The position numbers were made by a program, and so were the translations under genes. This document shows positions 1-15,720 of a stretch of 64,000 nucleotides of DNA, piece by piece. Positions within the stretch are counted from its first letter, which is position 1, and the number at the start of each line of letters is the position of its first letter. The notes below the pieces were generated by a model. That model had not been told where the DNA came from and searched no databases. It worked only from the letters and a program-made list of their open reading frames with translations. Source of the DNA: an uncultured Methylomirabilota bacterium (lineage in GTDB: Bacteria > Methylomirabilota > Methylomirabilia > Methylomirabilales > 2-02-FULL-66-22); assembly GCA_963695995.1 (NCBI GenBank), contig CAVOIV010000006.1:23718-87717 (forward strand), in the 5' to 3' direction.

Positions 1-864
1 TAGGCGCCCACCGAGGCGAAGATCGCCATGATCGTCACCGACGTGGCCGCCGCCCGGGCAAAGATGCGCGGCAGCGCCGCGAAGTGGATCGTCCGGTAGG
101 CCAGCATCCCGACCAGCAGGACGTAGAGGACGGCCAGAAAGGCGACCTCCACGATGGTCACCACACCGAAGATGACGCCCGCCAGGATGATGACCGGGGC
201 CAGGAGCGCCAGGAAGGCCTGCCCGAGGAGCCGCAGGAACTCGCCGAGCCCCCGCTCGACCTCCGTCGCGGGGAGTGGGTGCCGCAGGGAATGCAGGTAG
301 ATCGTCACGGCCAGGAAGATCGCCCATGAGCAGACCCGGGACGACCCCGCCCAGGAACAGCCGGCCGATGGACAGGTCGCTGATGACCGCGATGAACACC
401 ATGGGGATGCTGGGCGGGATGATGGGGCCGATGATCGCCGCCGAGGCGTTGATGGCAGCGGCGAACCGCCGATCGTAGCCGTCTCGGGCCATGGCCGGCA
501 GCAGTACCGAGGAGACGGCGCTGGCGTCCGCCACCGCGGAACCGGAGACGCCCGCCATGATCACGTTCACGATCACCGTGACATAGGCGAGCCCGCCCCG
601 GATCCGGCCGACGAAGTACTGCGCGAACCGCACCAGCCGCTCCGTGATCCCCGACTCGTTCATCAGCTCGCCGGCCAGCATGAAGAAGGGGATCGCGACC
701 AGCGTCACGATGTCCACGCCCGCCACCATGCTCTGCGCCATGACATTCAGGGGAACATCGCCGCGGATCAGGAGGTAGAGGATCGCGCTCAGCCCCATGG
801 CGGCCCAGATCTCGAAGCCGAGGGCGCACAGCGTGAAGAGCAGCACGAACAGCAGGCTGATCAT
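1..864 (-). CDS. dctM: TRAP transporter large permease (runs off window edge)
   Basis: Manual reading of the minus strand gives MISLLFVLLF...AIPFFMLAGELMNESGIT...GSAVADA...GPIIPPSIPMV, which are DctM motifs; lies directly after dctP. Confidence 0.9.
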   Translation of the reverse strand, partial: MISLLFVLLFTLCALGFEIWAAMGLSAILYLLIRGDVPLNVMAQSMVAGVDIVTLVAIPFFMLAGELMNESGITERLVRFAQYFVGRIRGGLAYVTVIVNVIMAGVSGSAVADASAVSSVLLPAMARDGYDRRFAAAINASAAIIGPIIPPSIPMVFIAVISDLSIGRLFLGGVVPGLLMGDLPGRDDLPAFPAAPTPRDGGRAGARRVPAAPRAGLPGAPGPGHHPGGRHLRCGDHRGGRLSGRPLRPAGRDAGLPDDPLRGAAAHLCPGGGHVGDDHGDLRLGGRL

Positions 865-4042: not shown

Positions 4043-4362
4043 GCACGACCTCCTGCGACTGCAACCAGTCGCGAGGGACACCGAGGCACCGGTCCGGGCG
4101 ATTCCGGGCGGACCCCCACTGGTCCGCCCCCGTCCTTGGCTGGCGCCCGACGGCGAGACGCACGCCGTCCCGATCCGACGGGGCGGGTGGCCAGAGCCTA
4201 ACTCAAAGCGACAGGAGTTGCAACGGCGTCAGACATCGAGGCGGCCCAGGCCGGGAGACGACCGGCGCGTTGCGGTGGAAGGTGGAGGTGAAACAGGGGG
4301 TGCGATGAATGAGACACTCATCCCTTAGGAGTTTAGTGTAGAGGGCGAGACGGGATAGGGAG

Positions 4363-4781
4363 ATGAGTTCCTCAAATGGAGGGGCGATCACAGGGACCAG
4401 TGTCCGCGAGGTCGAGGTCATGGCGAAGCCCACCCGGCGACGGTTCTCGGCCGAGTACAAGCTCAAGATCCTGCGGGAAGCGGGGGCCTGCATCCAGCCG
4501 GGGGAGCTCGGGGCCTTGCTCCGCCGGGAGGGGCTGTACTTCTCGAACCTGCAGACCTGGCGGGCGCAGCGGGAGGCGGGGAACTCGGGGGCCTGACGCC
4601 CAAGAAGCGGGGACCGGCCCCGCAAGCGAAAAACCCGCTGGCGGGCAAGGTGGCGGCCCTGGAACGGGAGATGACGCGGCTCAAAGCCCGGGCCGAGCGG
4701 GCCGAGGCCCTGGTGGAGCTCCAAAAAAAAGTCTCCGAGATCCTGGGGATCGAGTTACAGCGGCCCGGCGAGAAGGCCTGA
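4363..4781 (+). pseudogene. IS3 OrfA (HTH transposase), frameshift near 4580
   Basis: RRRFSAEYKLKILREA...LLRREGLY, followed by a coiled coil ...LVELQKKVSEILG. Confidence 0.8.
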
Positions 4782-5785
4782 TGGCGATCGTCACCGACCA
4801 GACGGCCACCCTGGGCGTCGCCCCGGTCTGCCGGGCCTTGGCCGTCTCCCGGGCCAGTTACTACCGAGGGCACACGCCCAAAGCCCTCGGCCCCGCGCTG
4901 CCCCGGCCGGTGCCCCGGGCCTTGCCGCCGGCGGAACGCCAGCACGTCCTGGCCGTGCTCACCGACGAGCGGTTTGCCGACCTGCCGCCGGCCGAGGTGT
5001 ATGCCACGCTGTTGGACGAGGGGAAGTTCCTCTGTTCGATTCGCACGATGTATCGCGTGCTCCAGGAGCACGCGCAGGTCCAGGAACGGCGCCGGCAGCT
5101 GCGGCATCCCCGGTATGCGGCGCCGGAGCTGTTGGCCACCGCTCCCAACCAGCTCTGGTCGTGGGACATCACCAAGCTGAAGGGGCCGGTGACCTGGACC
5201 TACTTCTACCTGTACGTGATCCTGGATGTCTTCTCCCGGTACGTGGTCGGCTGGATGGTGGCGGTCCAGGAATCGGCCACCTTGGCCCAGCACTTGATCG
5301 CGGAGACCTGCGCCCGGCAAGGGATCGCGCAAGGCACCCTGACGATCCACGCCGACCGGGGCCCGTCGATGAGCTCCAAGCCGGTGGCGCTCTTGCTCGC
5401 CGATCTGGGGGTGACCAAGAGTCAGGGCCGGCCGCACGTCTCCAACGACAACCCGTACTCGGAGAGCCAGTTCAAGACGCTGAAATACAGCCCCGCGTTT
5501 CCGGACCGGTTCGGGTCCCTGCCCGACAGCCGGAGCTTCCTGCACGACTTTTTCTAGTGGTACAACACGATGCACCATCATAGCGGCCTGGGGTTGCTGA
5601 CCCCCTTCGATGTCCATTACGGGCTGGCCGGACAACGGCTCGCGGAGCGGGAGACAGGTCTTGCGGACTGCGTTCGAGATGACCCCGGAGCGGTTCGTCC
5701 GAGGCGTGCCGAAACCGCTGGCCCTCCCCCAGGCCGTGTGGATCAACAAACCGAAGGACGCGTCACGCGAGACGTTCGACACTAA
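4781..5785 (+). pseudogene. IS3 OrfB DDE transposase with in-frame TAG at 5555-5557 and a later frameshift
   Basis: PNQLWSWDITKL, ILDVFSRYVVGW, IHADRG and SNDNPYSESQFKTLKY; the frame continues WYNTMHHHSGL after the stop. Confidence 0.85.
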
Positions 5786-8700
5786 AGTCTGTCCATGTCT
5801 GGCTGCATCACGCCAGGCACAGGTTGTCCTGTTGCTACATCCCAGGTCGAAGCATTCGGTGCCGGATAAAAGCCAGTTGTGTTCGGTGAATTCACCCCGA
5901 TGCCTACATGACCGAACCCACTTGCTCCCGTATAGAGCGTAACTGTTGCATCAAGCCCGGTCGGATCAATGTAGCGAAGCGGGTTATTGAGAACATACGC
6001 AAAGAGATTGAGCCCGCCTGCCAGCCCAATCGGTATCCTCACTGACGAACCGACTCTGGACCGGATCGTAGTACCGCGCCCGGTAATAGTACAACCCCGT
6101 GTCCCGGTCCCACTCCCGCCCGGTAAAGCGGTACGGTTGGGGATCCTTCACGTGGTTCTGCGGGACCCCGAAGGCGTCGTAGCGGTAGCGGCGCTCCAGG
6201 GTGCCGGTGGCATCCGTAAGGGCAACGATGCTCGCGAGGACGTCCGCGTGGTGGAAGCGGATCCCGACGGGGCGGAGTTGGGCGAGCGGCTCGTCGATGC
6301 CGGGGCCATGGAAGTAGCGTGCTCGCTCGCGATCCCGGCGGTTGAAGGTGGCCAGAATGTCCTCCCCATCGTAGAGGTAGCCGGTGATACGTGGCGGGGG
6401 ACCCTCCGCTCCACCCTCTTCGCTTTCGCCCTCACCCCCACCGCTGTCCTGCGTCACGCTCCGCTCGATTCGGCGTCCCAGGGCGTCGTAGCGGAAGGTC
6501 ACCGATTGCGTGGGCGTCCCCACCCAGGTGAGGCGGTTCTCGGGATCGTAGTAGTAACTGGTCACCGCCCCATCCGTCAGGCGGACCTGCTGGAGGAGGT
6601 TTCCGTTGGCGTCATACGTGTACGTGGCGGTCCCGTCGCTCGTCAACCGGGAGGCGGCATCGTAACTGTAGGCTTGGGTCTCCGGCCCGGTGAGGCGATT
6701 GCCCGCCGGGTCATAGGTGTACGCCTCCTCGGTCCGCCAGCGGCCCTTTTGCGTCTCGCGCTGGACCTGCGCGAGTTGGTCAAGCGCGTCGTACGCGTAC
6801 CGACCGGTCTGGTCGTTCCGGGTGTCGCCCGCCCGGTTCCCGGCGGGATCGTAGCTATATGTGAGGCTCTCGAAGGCCCCGGCCGGCCCGGTGTGCGTGA
6901 CGGCCGTGAGACGGGAGGCGGGGTCGTAGGTCGTGCTGGTCCCCGTCCCGTTGGGCCGCCCGAGGGCGATGCGACGCCCCAGGGTATCGTAGGTGAAGGT
7001 GACGGCCCCGACGCGGGGATCACTGAGACTGGAAAGCAGATTCCGGGGGTCGTAGGCATACGTCGTGAGCACCCCGGTATCGTCCTGACGCCCCATGCGG
7101 TTTCCCGCCTCATCGTAGGTGTAGGTCAAGGTCCGGCCGTTCGCATCCGTCGTGGTCAGAACCCGTCCGAGGGCATCGTAGGTGAAGCTGACGGTCCCCT
7201 CGTAGTTCCCGGCGGTGAGGAGGCGCCCGACCGGGTCGTAGGTATAGGTGGAGCCGCTCATTGCCTTCCGGGTGAGGCGGTTGAGGGCATCGTAGGCGAA
7301 GGTCTGCGTGTCCCCGCGCCGGTCCGTGTGCGTGGTGAGGTTGCCGACGGTGTCGTACGTGAAGGTCTCGGCCACCCCAAGAGGATCGGTACGTTGGATA
7401 AGCCGGTTGTGGGCGTCATACGCAAAGGTCGTCGTACTTCCGCGGGGGTCCGTGACGGAGAGCAGGTTGTTCTCCGAGTCGTCCGCGTACCGCGTGACAC
7501 CCCCGGCGGGATCGGTGACCTGGACGAGGCGGTTGGCCGCATCGTAACCATAGACCGTCGTTTGTCCCGTGGCCTTGGTGACGCTGGTTCGGTTCCCCGC
7601 GGCGTCGTAGCTGAACGTTGTTACCGCCCCGGTGGGATCGGTGACGCGCACGAGGCGGCTGCGCCCGTCGTAAGTGTACCGCGTGATGCCACCGACGGCA
7701 TCCGTCTGCTGGCTGAGCCGATCTGCGGCGTCATAGGAGAAGGTCGTGGTTGCCCCACTGGGGTTGGTCAGCGTAGCCAGAACCCCAGACGGCGAGTACG
7801 TGAATTGCCTGTTGAACCCGCGCGGTTCCGTCACTGTGGCAGGAAGATTCCGCACGTCGGGTGTGATCGTGGTGGCGTAGCCCAGGGCATCGATCACCTG
7901 GCGGAGGACGCCGGTCGCCTCGTCGTAGGCGTACGTTGTGGTCGCTCCGCTGGCGTCGGTGGCCGTGAGGACGTGGCCAAAGGCGTCATAGGTGCGCGTG
8001 CTACTTTGCCCGAGCGCGTCGATGAGGGTCACCAGGTTCCCTGCGGCATCGTATTCGAACTGACTCGCGTGCCCCGCGGCGTCCACGTACAGCATCCGCC
8101 GGCCCTGGGCATCGTAGGCGACGGTCGCATCGGGCCGACCGCAGGGACAGGGGCCCTCGACGTTGGTGACCACGGGCCGCTCGCCGAACATGGCGAAGGT
8201 ATAGGTCGTTACCCGGCCCAGGCTGTCGGTCACGCGGGTGGTGCCGCTGTCCAGGTACTCCAGGGTGAGTGCCTTCACCCCGCCTGCCTGGGCGGTCCCG
8301 ATGACCCGCCCCGCAGCATGGTAGGCGTGCTGCTCCACGATGTTCCCGTTGCCGTCTTGAACACTGATGAGGTAGACCGGGGTTGTCGCCGTATAGCTAT
8401 ACGTCCAGCGGGTCCCGAGGCCATCCGCGACGCTCACCAACTGACCGGCGCATCATACCGGTACTCGGCGAAGAGCCCACCGGGGCCGTCCACGCGGGCG
8501 AGATGCCCATCGCCGAGGTAGCTGAAGGTGAGTGTCCGCCCGCCGGGACCGGTCACCGTCGCGAGACGCCCATCGGCATACGTAAGCGTCGTCGCCCACC
8601 CCGCGCGTGAGGCAATGGCCAGAAGGCGCCCGGCCTGATCGAAGTCCCGCCGGAGCCCGTCCTGCTCGGTCTCGGTATAGCCCTCCGCGTGCTTCACGAG

Positions 8701-9985
8701 CCGGCTGAGGTCGCGGGCGGGCGCCACCACCCGGTAGGTCGAGCCGCCGGCAATGGGCTCGTAGTAGCGGATGTTCCCCGCCCCGTTCCGCACCCGGATG
8801 ACCCCGGGTTGCACCTCCTGTACCTCATAATCATAGGTATGCGTCCACCCCAGGCCCAGCGACCCGGCGTAGGTCGACTGGCTGTTGTAGGTGCGGATCA
8901 ATGGGAAGCGCCCGAAGGCGGAGGGGTAGGCCACGTCCTCCTGCTGGGTGTACATGTTCCCGGTCGTCACGTTGATCGGCTGCCCCACATACTCCAGGGC
9001 ACACTCGTCTTGCCCCGGCGGCGGGGACGGCGGCCCCTGCGCGACATCCGTGCCGCGTTGGTCCGGCGCCGGCGGACCGAAGGTGATCTCCAGGTTGTGG
9101 CCTGAGGACCACATGATACACGAATGGGCGGTGGTGCCGCCGTCGGCATTCGGGACGGCAGGCGGCGGTCCCGGGACCAATTCGAGCTCGCCGCCGCCGC
9201 CAGCGGCCAGCCCGGCGGTCTCCGCCGTAAAATCCCACGCGACGCCAACCGCCGTTGAGCTGTACCCTTGGCTTAGGAGCCGTTACGAAATAACCTATAC
9301 ATCTCTTTCTATTTCGTTACGGCTCCTTATGCCGTTTCGGAATGTCTCCGCTCAACTTATTCTTTGACAACGGCTTAGACCGCCCCAGTCATCACACGTC
9401 AGGTAATTGGCGGGGCCAACCCCTCTGACACTGGCCGGTTTCCCATTAATGGGGCCGGCGCTCGCGCTCGTGGGGACGACGGCACGCAATTCCGCCCGCT
9501 GGACCACCTGGTTGGGTGGAGCCGGGGGAATCGAGAAGGTGACGCGGGATCGCAGGGTGAGCCTACCTCCCCCGCTGTCGGTTCGGTCCGTGTAGCCGAG
9601 CATCCAGACCATAGAGTAGCTGCCGGTGCAGCCCACCGTGGTCTCCTGCGACCAGACATTGAAGTCACCCGTGCACCAGATATGGGCGGGTGACGTGCCC
9701 GTTAGCGCCATCGCGCCCTGAATTTGAGCTTGTGTTGGCGACACGGTGGTGTTCCAGAGTTCCAAGCCAGTCATCAACGGGGGGATCTCTGCTGGCTGCG
9801 TCGACGCAATCTCTCGCGTCACCCAGTGGAAGTAGGGACTATCATACTTCTGATTCAGGACCTCCTTCCGCTCCGTGCCGTACGCGTTCGGTTCGGTCGC
9901 GGACTCGGTAAGCCCACCGCAAAGCATACTGAGGGTAACAAGGAGCGCGGGATACGCGGAGGCTTTCGAAAACGGGGAGCGCGAT
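5782..9985 (-). pseudogene. Rhs/YD-repeat polymorphic toxin precursor: signal-like N-terminus, DUF6531, YD repeats, Rhs core, truncated C-terminal tip (start approximate)
   Basis: VGQPINVTTGN...RTYNS...GLGWTH (DUF6531); many YD repeats; YRFTGREWD.TGLYYYRARYYDP; NLFAYVLNNPLRYIDPTGL. Split by frameshifts near 8440 and 6040 and by an insert at 9277-9378. Confidence 0.88.
9270..9378. mobile_element. MITE-like AT-rich mini-insertion flanked by GGCTTAG direct repeats
   Basis: GGCTTAG at 9270-9276 and 9372-9378 (102-bp offset); internal IR ggagccgttacgaaata / tatttcgttacggctcc; three in-frame stops. Confidence 0.75.
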
Positions 9986-10170
9986 CACGTCCGTTTTGGA
10001 GTTGCTTGGAGGAGTGGACAACGGGCGGCGCGCCGGGAAAGGCGACGGTGGCGGTATGACACTAACGCATGATTGGCGCCAACGCTGTCTGTGGCGTGGC
10101 GTGATCGAAAAGCAAGCAGATAGGTCTCAGAATTGCGCGATGATCCGATCCGCCACTCGTGGGGGTCCGG

Positions 10171-11238
10171 TTACGGCAGCCGCCGGCTGGGGGACGACGC
10201 TGCCGGGGCGGCCTGAGATGCGCCAAGCATCTCGCCTTCTTTCGCGAACACCTGGATGGATGATCGCGGAACGCAGACCGGCGACGTACTCCTTGCGCTT
10301 GACCTCGAACTTCTCCTGGAACAGCTGCTCCCGGATCGCTTCCCGGACCTCGGCCAAGGGGGCGACCGGCTCCGCTCTGACCTTTTCGACCTTGATCAGA
10401 TGAAAGCCCGCCGCGGTCCGGATCGGCTCACTGACGCCCCCGGGCGGCAGGCCGAAAGCGACCGCCTCGATCTCGGGGGCCAGCTCCCCGCGTCGGACCG
10501 TCAGCGAGATCGGCCCCCGATCCGGCGGGGTCATCCCCATATTGCTTCGCCGTCTCGACGAAGTCCGCGCCGGCCCGGATCTTCGCCAGCGCCTCCTCGA
10601 CACGCGCCCGAACCTGCGCCTCGTCCTGGTCGGGTCGCACGTCGAACAGGACGTGGTGGATCTCGGCTTCCGGGATCCGCTGGAACTTGCTGAGGTTCGC
10701 CTCGTAGTACTTGGCGATCTCGTCTTCGCTGAGAATGATGGAGGACCGGATCTGCCGGGCCAGCAGGCGGCCGATGGCCAGCCGCTCGCTGATGCTCCGA
10801 CGAATCTGCTCCAGCGTCAGCCCTTCGGCTTTGAGCAGGGCGCGGAACTGGGCCTCGTCGGTGGCGTTGTTGTTCCGCTTGAGCTCGTCGATGGCGCCCT
10901 GTACCTCGGCCGTGGACGGCAGCGATGCCCTCCTGTTTCGCCACCTGGTACAGCAGGCGCCGGTCGATGAGGTCGTTCAAGCAGGCGCTGCTCCGCCTCG
11001 CTCGACGCGCCGGTCCCGCTCCGTCCCGACGAAATCCTGGAAGATCTTCCGGATCACCGGCTGGCCTTCCTCCTGGATCTCGCTCAGCGTGAGCGCCTCG
11101 TCGTTCACCGAGGCCACCACGCGGTCCAGGACCATCCCCTTCGGCTCGTCCGCCTTCGGGGCGGTCTGCGCCAAGCGCCGGCGCGGCAACGAAGAGCAAC
11201 AGCAAGGCCGGCCAGAGGCCGGGCCTGCGTAGCCTCAT
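10171..11238 (-). CDS. SurA-like parvulin PPIase/chaperone (frameshifted)
   Basis: Signal peptide; LDRVVASVNDEALTLSE (SurA N-domain); GADFVETAKQY and VSEPIRTAAGFHLIKV. Confidence 0.8.
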
Positions 11239-12286: not shown

Positions 12287-15200
12287 CTATGCAAGAGTTT
12301 TCTGGCCGCCGCCAGGCGCGCCTCCGGCGTCGTCCCGTCGGTCCGATACTCCAGCGTGTCCTCCGGCAGATACTTGAGCCGGCCCCGTTCCGTGCGGAGC
12401 AGGGTCACGATCGTCTCCGGGCTGACCGGCGGCGTCCGGCCCGAAGCGCACCCGGATGGCTTCCCGCCGGGCGTCGATCTCTTGAATGCGGAGCGCCCGC
12501 GCCTGGATCTTGAGGTCCATCACCTGGAGCAGCCACTCCGCCTCGGGCGGGACCGGCCCGAAGCGATCCGCCAGCTCGTCGGCGAAATCGGTCAGCTGTC
12601 GGCGTCTCGCGGAGGGCGGCCAGCCGCTTGTACAGGTTCAGGCGCAGCGCGGGATCGGGGACGTAGGATTCGGGAATGAATCCCTCGGCGCGCAGGCGAA
12701 TGGTCGGCTCGACCTCGACCTCGGTGGGCTCTCCCTTCAGTTCGCGGACGGTCTCCTGGATGAGCTGGGTGTACAGGTCGAAGCCCACGGCGGCGATGTG
12801 ACCCGACTGCTCGGCCCCCAGCAGGTTCCCCGCTCCGCGGATCTCCAGGTCCCGCGCCGCGATCTTGAAGCCGGAGCCCAGCTCGGTGAGCTCGGCGATG
12901 ACCTGCAGGCGCTTCCGCGCCACCTCGCTCATGCCGCCGTCCGCCGGGACCAGCAGGTAGGCGAAGGCCCGGTACTTGTCCCGGCCGACCCGCCCCCGCA
13001 GCTGGTACAGCTGCGCCAAGCCCAGGGTGTCGGCGCGGTCGATGATGATGGTGTTGGCCGAGGGGACGTCCAGCCCCGATTCGATGATGGTGGTGCAGAG
13101 CAGGACGTCCACCTTCTTGAGGTAGAAGTCCACCATCACCTTCTCCAGCGCCGCCTCGCTCTGCTGGCCGTGCGCCACGCTGATCCGCGCCTCCGGGCAC
13201 GATCTGCTTCAGCCGCCGGGCCACGGCGTGGATGCTCTCCACCCGGTTGTGGACGAAGAAGACCTGGCCGCCGCGTGCCAGCTCCGCGCCGGATGGCCTC
13301 GCCGATGACGTCCGGGTCGTAGGGGGTGACGTAGGTCCGGATCGCCAGCCGCTCCTCGGGCGGCGTCTCGATGGTGCTGACGTCCCGCACGCCCAGCATG
13401 GTCATGTGCAGGGTGCGCGGGATGGGGGTGGCCGTCAGGGTGAGCACGTCCACCTCGCGCCGGAGCTGCTTCAGGGCCTCCTTGGCCGCCACGCCGAAGC
13501 GCTGCTCCTCGTCCACGACCAGCAGGCCCAGCGCCGAGAACTTCACGTCCTTCTGGAGCAGGCGATGGGTGCCGATGACGATGTCCACGCGTCGCCGTCG
13601 GCCAGCCCCCGCACGACCTGCTTCTGATCCGCCGTCGGGCCGGAACCGGCAGAGCATCTCCACCTGCACCGGGAAACCGGCGAAGCGGGCGCTGAAGGTC
13701 TGATGGTGCTGCATGGCGAGCACGGTGGTGGGCACCAGGACGGCCACCTGCTTGCCGTCCATGACCGCCTTGAAGGCGGCCCGCAGGGCCACCTCGGTCT
13801 TGCCGTAGCCCACGTCCCCGCAGACCAGGCGGTCCATGGGCTGGGGCCGCTCCATGTCCCGCTTCACGTCCCGGATGGCCTGGAGCTGGTCGGGCGTCTC
13901 GTCGTACGGGAACGCCGCCTCGAACTCCTTCTGCCAGGGCGAGTCGGCCGGGAAGGCGTGGCCCGTGAAGGACCTGCCGCGCGGCGTAGAGACGCAGGAG
14001 CTCCCCGGCCATCTCGCGGACGCTGGCCCGCACCCGCTCCTTGGCCTTGGCCCAGGTGGTGCCCCCCAGCCGGTCCAGGGCGGGGTGCGGCGCCGCCGAC
14101 TCCCCGGCCACGTACCGCTGGACCAGATGGAACTTCGAGACGGGGACGTAGAGCGTGTCGCTCCCGGCGTACTGGAGGTGCAGGAAGTCGCCCGTCCTGC
14201 CCGCCCACCGCGAGCTGCTCCAGGCCCCGGTACTGGGCGATGCCGTGGTCGACGTGCACCACGTAGTCGCCCACCTTGAGGTCTGCGAAGGAGGTGAACG
14301 GCAGGGCTTCCTTCGGCCGGGCGCGCCGCCGCAGCACCGCGTGGGCGCCGAAGATCTCTTGCTCGGTGATCAGGGTGAGCTGGAGCGGCGCGATCCGGAA
14401 CCCCGCCGTCAGCTCCCCGATCCAGAGGCCGATCCCCCCCGGCTCCGGCAGCTCCCGCCCCAGGCGAACCCCCAGGTCGTGGTCCCGCAGGATCTCGTGA
14501 GCCGCCGGCCCTGGGCCTCGCTCCGCGCGACCAGGACCACCCGCTCGCCTCTGCGTCGCCAGCGGTCCAGATCCTCCAGGAAGCCGGTGATGCGCCCGCG
14601 GTAGCCCTCGATGCCGATGGCCGGGATCTCACGCAGGAGGGGGGACGGCGGCGCTTCCCGGCGGTCGGCTCGCGCGGCGGGGGCGCGAACGACGTGAGTG
14701 CGATCCCGGCCCACGCCTGCGCCTCCCGGCGGAAATCGTCCCAGGCGACCCAGCGATCGGCCGGCGGCGGGAAGAGGGGTGCCACATCGGGTTCCCGGTC
14801 GGCCTCGGCCTCCGCGTCCCGGAGGAGCGCCGCCGCCCGCTCGGCCAGGGCAGAATCCTCGTCCCAGACGATCAGCGCCGTCCGCGGGCAGATAGGCAAG
14901 CACGGAGGCGGGGTCGGACACCAGGTCCGGCAGGAAGGCATCCCACTCGGGGATGGGCCGTCGCTGCTCCAGGGCCTCCAGCCAGGCCGGCGGAACCGCG
15001 ACGCCTTCCCGCCGAGCCGTGGCCCGGAGGCGCGCCTCCATCCGGCCGGCCGCGTCCTCGGTCATCAGGAACTCTTGCAGGGGAAGCAGGGTCGCCTGGG
15101 CGGCGGCGCCCAGCGAGCGCTGGGTTTCCGGGTCGAAGTGGCGGAGGGAGTGGACCTCGTCCCCGAAGAATTCGACGCGCACGGGATGCCGCATGGCAGG

Positions 15201-15720
15201 GGGAAAGCAATCCAGGATCCCGCCACGGATCGCGAACTCCCCCGGCTCCGTCACCTGGCCGACGCCGCGGTAGCCTCCGGCCGTCAGGGCGCGCAGCAGC
15301 TCCTCCCGAGACACGATCCGCTGCGGGTAGAGCGACACCACCGCGCCCTCCAGCGCAGCCGGAGGGATGGTGCGGGGTAGGGCCGCGGCCACCGATGCCA
15401 CCAGGACGGCAGCCTGGCCCGTCTGGAACCGGTGGAGCGCCTCCACGCGGCCCGCGCGGGCCTCCAGGTCGTCCTCCCGCTCCGGGAGCAACGCCACCGT
15501 CGTCGCCCAGGAAAAAGACCAGGTCCTGGGCCAGCGCCGCGGCGACCTCGTCGCTCCGGCAGAGAGCGAGGAGCGTCCGGCCCGTCCCGACCTGGCACGC
15601 AGCCAGGGCCAGGGCGCGGGCGGCACCGGTGAGACCGGCGAGGACGATTCCCGCGGGGGCCTGCAGGTCCTCGCAGAGATCGACGAGCCGGGTTTCGCGC
15701 CAGAGGTATTGTGGAAGCAT
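12287..15720 (-). CDS. mfd: Transcription-repair coupling factor (multiple frameshifts)
   Basis: [53 protein letters not shown] and [12 protein letters not shown]. Confidence 0.95.

Follow-up and report, generated by a model that had tools for sequence, protein, structure and literature searches.

Among bacterial MITEs, the Correia and RUP elements duplicate TA. The classical bacterial MITEs (Correia/NEMIS, RUP, ERIC, and Chunjie) are described in PMC10969869 as small, non-coding, hairpin-forming, multi-copy sequences that are mostly intergenic and occasionally disrupt a gene; the Chunjie elements measure 178–235 bp. The same source describes the Rickettsia palindromic elements (RPE), ~100–150-bp palindromic repeats that lie inside ORFs and whose length keeps the frame. 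Among insertion sequences, ISAzo13 pairs with Zator and the IS5 family with PIF/Harbinger, as stated in PMC5718144.

The window analyzed here is a 64,000-nucleotide stretch of DNA from an uncultured Methylomirabilota bacterium (genome G000), and at 9273–9377 it carries one copy of a dispersed repeat that is 105 bp long, contains two hairpins and is flanked by TTA. Like the classical MITEs, this repeat is small, non-coding, hairpin-forming, present in many copies and mostly intergenic, with an occasional gene disruption. The copy in the window lies in an Rhs gene, and in all likelihood it represents the recent insertion of a non-autonomous MITE derived from ISAzo13, that is, a plain knockout of the Rhs gene.

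Structure and Boundaries of the Element

Two copies of GGCTTAG were located at 9270–9276 and 9372–9378, the 102-bp spacing reported in the first-pass annotation, which had been made from the letters of the window and their translations. The nested 51-bp unit described there was also present, bounded by TTA at 9273–9275 and 9327–9329 and having 17-bp inverted ends: the arm GGAGCCGTTACGAAATA occupies 9276–9292 and recurs inverted at 9310–9326 with a single mismatch. The inverted arm gave two matches against 0.05 expected, and two were reached in 0 of 100 shuffles. The diverged third arm was placed at 9360–9374. The terminal inverted repeats are unequal, with a perfect left end, a diverged right end (9360–9374) without its outer 3 nt, and the perfect inverted copy in the interior of the element.

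The family consensus at the ends reads AACGGC before TTA and, at the opposite end, TTA before GGAGCC. Since the GGC of the right GGCTTAG copy and the final G of the left copy both fit the element consensus, the 7-bp length of this repeat is due to chance and the true duplication is TTA only.

On folding, the strand formed a 17-bp hairpin and a second, three-stem domain (z about −8). For the second domain the DNA fold was −24.2 kcal/mol (z −8.0), and an equally stable fold appeared in 0 of 200 shuffles. The G+C content of the patch was 42%, compared with 66% for the genome. The MITE carries at least one stop codon in each of the six frames, so an intragenic copy truncates translation. The Rfam search returned no credible family, the best match being a microRNA model whose 23 bits fell short of the cut-off of 93, and the promoter and terminator scan of 9000–10300 yielded no promoter-like site, with nothing inside the MITE. 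The coordinates of the element and of the remains of the Rhs gene are listed in Table 1.

Table 1. Features of the MITE copy and of the interrupted Rhs gene (window coordinates).
Feature	Position	Strand	Evidence or remark
MITE copy, both flanking TTA counted	9273..9377	+	Net addition 102 bp = 99-bp element + one TTA
Left TTA of target-site duplication	9273..9275	+	TTA in 96/104 copies
Hairpin unit 1: two ISAzo13-type terminal repeats back to back	9276..9326	+	9276-9292 and 9310-9326, 17-nt loop between
Second domain: 6-bp closing stem enclosing two small hairpins	9330..9374	+	Ends in degenerate right terminal repeat 9360-9374
Right TTA of target-site duplication	9375..9377	+	TTA in 69/104 copies
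Rhs N-terminal piece A, 183 codons, severed by MITE	9379..9927	-	Residues 2-167 vs P0001 18-210, E 3e-8
Rhs piece B: DUF6531 + first RHS repeat	8437..9270	-	PF20148 1.3e-17, PF05593; residues 10-273 vs P0001 223-488, E 5e-104
One-base frame change, piece B / RHS core	8440..8455	-	Possibly assembly error
RHS-repeat core, 818 codons	5987..8440	-	PF05593 2.9e-103, 14 stretches
Second frame change (near 6031-6035), core-end motif, first ~77 residues of C-terminal toxin domain	5785..6035	-	P0004 1248-1324 aligns to 6033-5797
IS3-family element cutting toxin domain, boundaries approximate	4305..5790	+	rve domain 5.3e-21; second partial copy C39:1-450

The MITE Family in the Genome

The first-pass annotation had proposed a transposase-less MITE and a genome search for further copies. 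BLAST of the patch against its own 5.94-Mb assembly returned 117 matches, of which 104 were full-length copies with sharp edges at window 9273 and 9377, spread over 46 of the 70 contigs; these copies, their TTA duplications and the empty sites described below bear that proposal out. The left flanking triplet was TTA in 96 of the 104 copies, the right in 69 and both in 64, and TAA occurred on neither side of any copy (0/104). The right-side variants included TCA (11 copies) and CTA (five copies). The right TTA is far less conserved than the left, and part of this difference is drift to other stop codons of the opposite strand (TCA, read as TGA, and CTA, read as TAG).

A young subfamily comprised 11 copies that were 97–100% identical, all 11 with TTA on both sides, and the remaining copies were 78–91% identical. 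The Rhs copy was 100% identical to five other copies in this genome and to four in the congener G005. Among 99 distinct copies the stems were nearly invariant, being kept in at least 93, and the variation was concentrated in the loop. Members of the young subfamily with 100% identity over 105 bp were observed in both G000 and G005, two different species, at non-orthologous sites with flanks only 85–92% identical. A MITE source that was active and either common to these two genomes or horizontally transferred between them is suggested. Outside the full copies, a search of the same genome for the arm (16-mer, up to three mismatches) found deletion derivatives, solo hairpin units and chance matches only, and no long IS.

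In 43 of the 104 copies, the right flank scored as coding in the frame in which the right TTA serves as the TAA stop of a gene that runs into the element. In another pattern, seen in 15 copies, the left TA together with the first G of the element formed a TAG stop. Stop codons were the main targets, since TTA is rare in GC-rich coding DNA. A codon-score test for intragenic position was passed by 0 of 104 copies and is insensitive in genes of atypical codon use, missing even the Rhs copy itself (0.05/−0.06). The Rhs copy is the one clear intragenic case, and none of the other 103 was called intragenic by this test.

Two further repeats were encountered. A second MITE-like family of ~155 bp, represented at G000:C39:120187-120344, had 177 BLAST matches genome-wide, TTA on both sides, and the ends AACAGGCTGCTGAAAA.../...TTTTTCAGCATCCTGTT; the 105-bp MITE adjoined an end of this family, with one TTA in common, in five copies (C27_18049, C27_74135, C32_153223, C32_154522, and C39_120342). 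On contig C45, a repeat of up to ~280 bp that occurs in about seven places (positions 71203, 90281, 95847, 116663, 123427, and 158705) contains the hairpin CCGAGATCTTGGAGCCGTTCCGAAATCTCGG, whose loop matches 15 of 16 bases of the MITE arm. It was rejected as an IS and looks like a common upstream region.

Distribution of the Element in Other Genomes

The MITE family was found in five of 66 genomes of the order, all of one genus (G000, G004, G005, G012, and G013), and hence in four of the 20 congeners of this genome. In species-representative genomes, the exact 19-mer TTAGGAGCCGTTACGAAAT, a query that included the left TTA, occurred in at least 98 stretches. By record title, the matches listed were MAGs of Desulfobacterota, Gammaproteobacteria, Methylomirabilota, Nitrospirota, Acidobacteriota, and Elusimicrobia, that is, at least six phyla. 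Most of the matches listed were the same two-part MITE, the right end likewise being followed by TTA. The MITE itself was seen in MAGs of Methylomirabilota, Desulfobacterota, Gammaproteobacteria, Nitrospirota, and Acidobacteriota, and an IS partner in an Elusimicrobia MAG. Viral contigs gave nine exact matches to the arm and the MITE structure in none.

The Interrupted Rhs Gene

The minus-strand ORFs 9927→9352 and 9180→8434 lie in one frame, and the patch puts three stops into it, TGA at 9352–9354, TAG at 9295–9297 and TAA at 9283–9285, the same three codons that the first-pass annotation had named. The translation contains DUF6531, RHS repeats and the core-end motif ...NPLRYIDPTGL, the last read directly from the translation, together with a truncated C-terminal domain, which identifies an Rhs/YD-repeat toxin protein. 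Piece B was 54–73% identical to 25 full-length Rhs proteins. Pieces A and B aligned to neighboring parts of an uninterrupted homologue of 1481 residues (P0001), and tblastn with this protein gave a single match, from residues 10–488 to window 9948–8452, in one frame and colinear through the patch. Homologues therefore have one gene here, not two. This alignment across the junction had been suggested beforehand as a check, and together with a natural allele that lacks exactly these 102 bp, it upholds the earlier claim that removing the insert rejoins the Rhs frame.

Piece A had no relative in the 20 congeners, and a word search of longer proteins likewise gave none; among 1.8 billion representatives it had one weak match, and its homology to P0001 and P0005 was visible only pairwise. 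A DNA search of relatives for an orthologous Rhs N-terminus returned only one match, of 77%, to part of piece B. Third-position G+C was 0.75 in the N-terminal region versus 0.82–0.84 in piece B and the RHS core. The homology to P0001 was observed to begin at 9948, whereas the first ATG/GTG/TTG lies downstream at 9927, and there is no start codon before the expected signal-peptide region; this state of 9927–9990 on the minus strand reflects an unusual start or else a further frame error.

At the other end of the gene, the truncated C-terminal toxin domain matched no Pfam family, and its last ~90 residues were nowhere in the assembly. Neither an immunity-gene candidate nor the remainder of the toxin domain was recognized between the IS3 element and the next ORF at 4081. 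The partial IS3 copy at the end of contig C39 was 95% identical.

The coding sequence of the housekeeping gene mfd (window 12405–15626, minus strand) is distributed over at least four frames, and segments of its profile are missing. The frame changes of the Rhs gene near 8450 and 6033 may therefore be assembly errors, since mfd is split in the same window. Single-base indel errors are probably numerous in this assembly and would also depress its completeness estimate of 77%. A TRAP-transporter-like gene at 1–864 (minus strand), named by its translation alone, also appeared to change frame.

Parent Element

The ends of the MITE had been called IS5/ISAzo13-like in the first-pass annotation. The ISAzo13 half of this assignment held, and the IS5 half did not: the left terminus TTAGGAGCCGTTACGAAATAAC agreed at all 24 of 24 nt with the inverted repeat of an ISAzo13-type element of ~1.2 kb, and the best IS5-type end agreed at 14 of 19 positions and belonged to an element whose distribution does not follow that of the MITE. 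The ISAzo13-type element, at positions 189–1397 of locus L100, was the only IS with such ends among the 80 loci examined. Its ends are of the MITE type (24/24 and 21/21 nt identical), and two matches of its ORFs to the ISAzo13 transposase family PF07592 scored 4.8e-80 and 6.3e-26. Its transposase is defective, being split and lacking profile positions 193–233.

Of seven complete ISAzo13 relatives, five had GG...AAATAA-type ends and 3-bp TNA direct repeats: TCA, TTA, TTA, and TAA in four from metagenomes, and TTA in the fifth, which came from a genome belonging to the order of G000. The other two (L100 and L273) had TTA/TAA in place of direct repeats. The identity of the terminus with the ends of an IS encoding PF07592, together with the 3-bp duplications of the relatives, indicated that the MITE derives from ISAzo13. 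It was also observed that the ISAzo13 relatives show both TTA and TAA, and the MITE flank is never TAA.

The cognate transposase that was to be sought in the genome did not turn up in intact form. An intact ISAzo13 transposase was absent from all five MITE-bearing genomes searched. G000 had only a broken ISAzo13 relic (C21:3428-4040), with stops and without matching ends, and G004, G005, G012, and G013 gave no ISAzo13 transposase match, G005 being 98% complete and holding many MITE copies at 99–100% identity.

Other transposases were present in the genus. IS4/IS5-type, Harbinger-type, and IS630-type transposases were considered and rejected; they do not track the MITE, and none was found in the near-complete G005. 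Copies of an IS5_3-type IS with the ends GAGCCTATCCGTGAATAAC were located at G012:C22:4-902 and G013:C261:8439-9337 and in G014 and G019 (L064–L067), and the three copies with both flanks were all bordered on each side by TTA, identically oriented. A ~335-residue Y1/HUH transposase-like family with a C-terminal extension, exemplified by G005:C3:53485-54492 (P0122), had 1–25 matches per genome in 21 of 21 genomes and scored below the NCBIfam RAYT cut-off.

Empty Sites

Public metagenome contigs were compared with window 8950–9700, and a joint from 9269 to 9372 that skips exactly 102 bp was recovered. The soil-metagenome run X2 supplied one 261-nt contig with the empty site, its shorter side being 85 nt and the two sides having 0 and 1 mismatches. 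The bog run X1, from another study, had the same joint, which is weak there with a shorter side of only 26 nt. This joint shows that the empty Rhs site occurs in nature, and thus the empty-site allele that the first-pass annotation had proposed to look for exists in samples other than the source. The filled MITE/Rhs junction was bridged by no contig among the matches listed. The highest share of sampled words in any metagenome run was 0.42, which places the source sample outside the runs compared; uncovered parts and runs with small shares were not counted as evidence. In these contigs of other samples, filled and empty alleles were never seen together in one sample.

Empty sites were also found in the reverse comparison. 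For MITE insertions of the congeners G005, G012, and G013, the orthologous site of G000 had no MITE, three of the four comparisons being clear. The empty Rhs allele is most simply taken as the ancestral, never-inserted state.

Origin and Consequence of the Insertion

Here, a course of events is proposed to account for the present state of the locus. The MITE entered at an out-of-frame TAA (TTA on the plus strand) in the N-terminal region of the Rhs gene, and the target TTA was duplicated upon transposition, adding 102 bp. An ISAzo13-type DDE transposase supplied in trans was presumably the mover. Translation from the native start would then stop after about 190 codons, leaving the DUF6531, RHS-core and toxin parts unmade, and the IS3 element has also deprived the same gene of its toxin end.

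The first-pass annotation had offered two readings, a plain knockout and an excisable ON/OFF switch for the toxin gene. In the latter, the MITE would be excised precisely with one TTA, the frame restored and the element re-inserted, so that the population toggles toxin production. An empty-site allele with precise ends in nature agrees with such a cycle, as does the geometry of the insertion, whose length is a multiple of three and whose 7-bp direct repeat around a strong hairpin favors both slippage and excision by a transposase. mPing, a MITE that duplicates TTA/TAA, was excised precisely in 109 of 110 events (PMC2836001); however, mPing belongs to a different transposase superfamily from ISAzo13 according to PMC5718144. 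The empty alleles were recovered in different samples and studies and are more simply never-inserted ancestors, no intact cognate transposase was found in the assembly, and among the 103 other copies no intragenic one was called. Moreover, the rejoined frame would not give a complete gene, because IS3 has truncated the toxin domain and the assembly lacks the rest of it. Reversible switching is thus very unlikely. Since no cognate enzyme was found, the same gene has a second lesion and empty alleles were confined to other samples, a recent insertion that simply knocked out the gene is by far the preferred explanation. It is scarcely credible, on the other hand, that the assembler misplaced the MITE into the Rhs gene, even in an assembly rich in indel errors (mfd over at least four frames) and with no public contig bridging the filled junction among the matches listed, since the insertion is full-length, identical to the consensus, and placed exactly at a TTA with the duplication typical of the family, features that indel errors do not create.

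The identity of the mover was weighed in the same way. A single-strand HUH/Y1 transposase of the REPIN-RAYT or IS200/IS605 type would insert the element 3′ of TTA with no true duplication and excise it seamlessly. The strict orientation to TTA on the left, without a single TAA, fits this mode, and the polarity of all copies is not predicted by a symmetric DDE reaction. The MITE also forms strong hairpins, RAYT-like genes are multi-copy, and Y1_Tnp was the only one of seven transposase families present in all five MITE-bearing genomes. However, the RAYT-like family extends to every genome of the genus (21/21) and the MITE to five; its member P0122, at 64.5 bits, stayed below the 80 bits that the RAYT model requires; and the MITE shares identical ends with a DDE element of ISAzo13. 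No arm adjoined a RAYT-like gene: the nearest MITE was >2 kb away in G000, and none lay within 1.5 kb at two G005 loci. RAYT genes flanked by the repeats and distributed with them, as in REPIN-RAYT systems, were thus not observed, and an HUH/Y1 mover appears improbable. An origin from the IS5 family (IS1031/IS427-type) drew on the congeners' 899-bp, two-ORF IS5_3-type IS, which has TTA on both sides and an end that agrees with that of the MITE at 14 of 19 positions in a hand alignment. Besides G012 and G013, that IS also occurred in four MITE-free genomes (G014, G018, G019, and G020); it was absent from G000 and reduced to a 150-bp relic in G005. PF01609, PF13359, PF13586, and NF033580 had no match in G005, BLAST found no IS4/IS5-type element with matching ends in G000, and the ISAzo13 element matches the MITE end exactly. 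Descent from IS5 is most improbable, and ISAzo13 is retained as the parent family.

Comparison with Known Systems

The event and the element appear to be of an ordinary kind, and the link to ISAzo13 and the spread across phyla appear undescribed in the literature searched. No description of an ISAzo13-derived MITE was found there, ISAzo13 and MITEs being mentioned there only separately, nor was the terminal 12-mer of the element. The odd AT-rich patch is explained as a dated, polymorphic transposon insertion, and the Rhs locus as decaying rather than regulated, and a widespread hairpin repeat is tied to a little-studied IS family. It is unlikely that the family as a whole amounts to a pan-phylum, ISAzo13-derived MITE that has an exact 19–24-nt terminus in at least six phyla, stays active without a recognizable cognate transposase and, inserting in one orientation to TTA only, lands on TAA/TAG stops and hardly ever damages a gene. 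The strict polarity and the targeting of stop codons bear on how MITEs reach high copy numbers in gene-dense, GC-rich genomes.

Compared with the ISAzo13 ISs (PF07592, DDE_Tnp_ISAZ013), the MITE has a terminal sequence identical to the inverted repeat of one of them and a like 3-bp TNA duplication. It differs from them in being only 105 bp long and without a transposase, in its right end, a degenerate repeat that lacks the outer three bases, in an extra, internal perfect repeat that forms a hairpin, and in its strict orientation to TTA. From the classical bacterial MITEs it differs in parent IS family and in target. mPing (Tourist, PIF/Harbinger) has a like 3-bp TTA/TAA duplication, and precise excision of the element plus one copy of the duplication is documented for it in PMC2836001, but mPing is eukaryotic and depends on another transposase superfamily. 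If excision of the present MITE were as precise as that of mPing, its rare intragenic copies would be reversible gene interrupters. The RPE, which likewise lie inside ORFs at a frame-keeping length (PMC10969869), are read through as protein, whereas this MITE has stops in all six frames.
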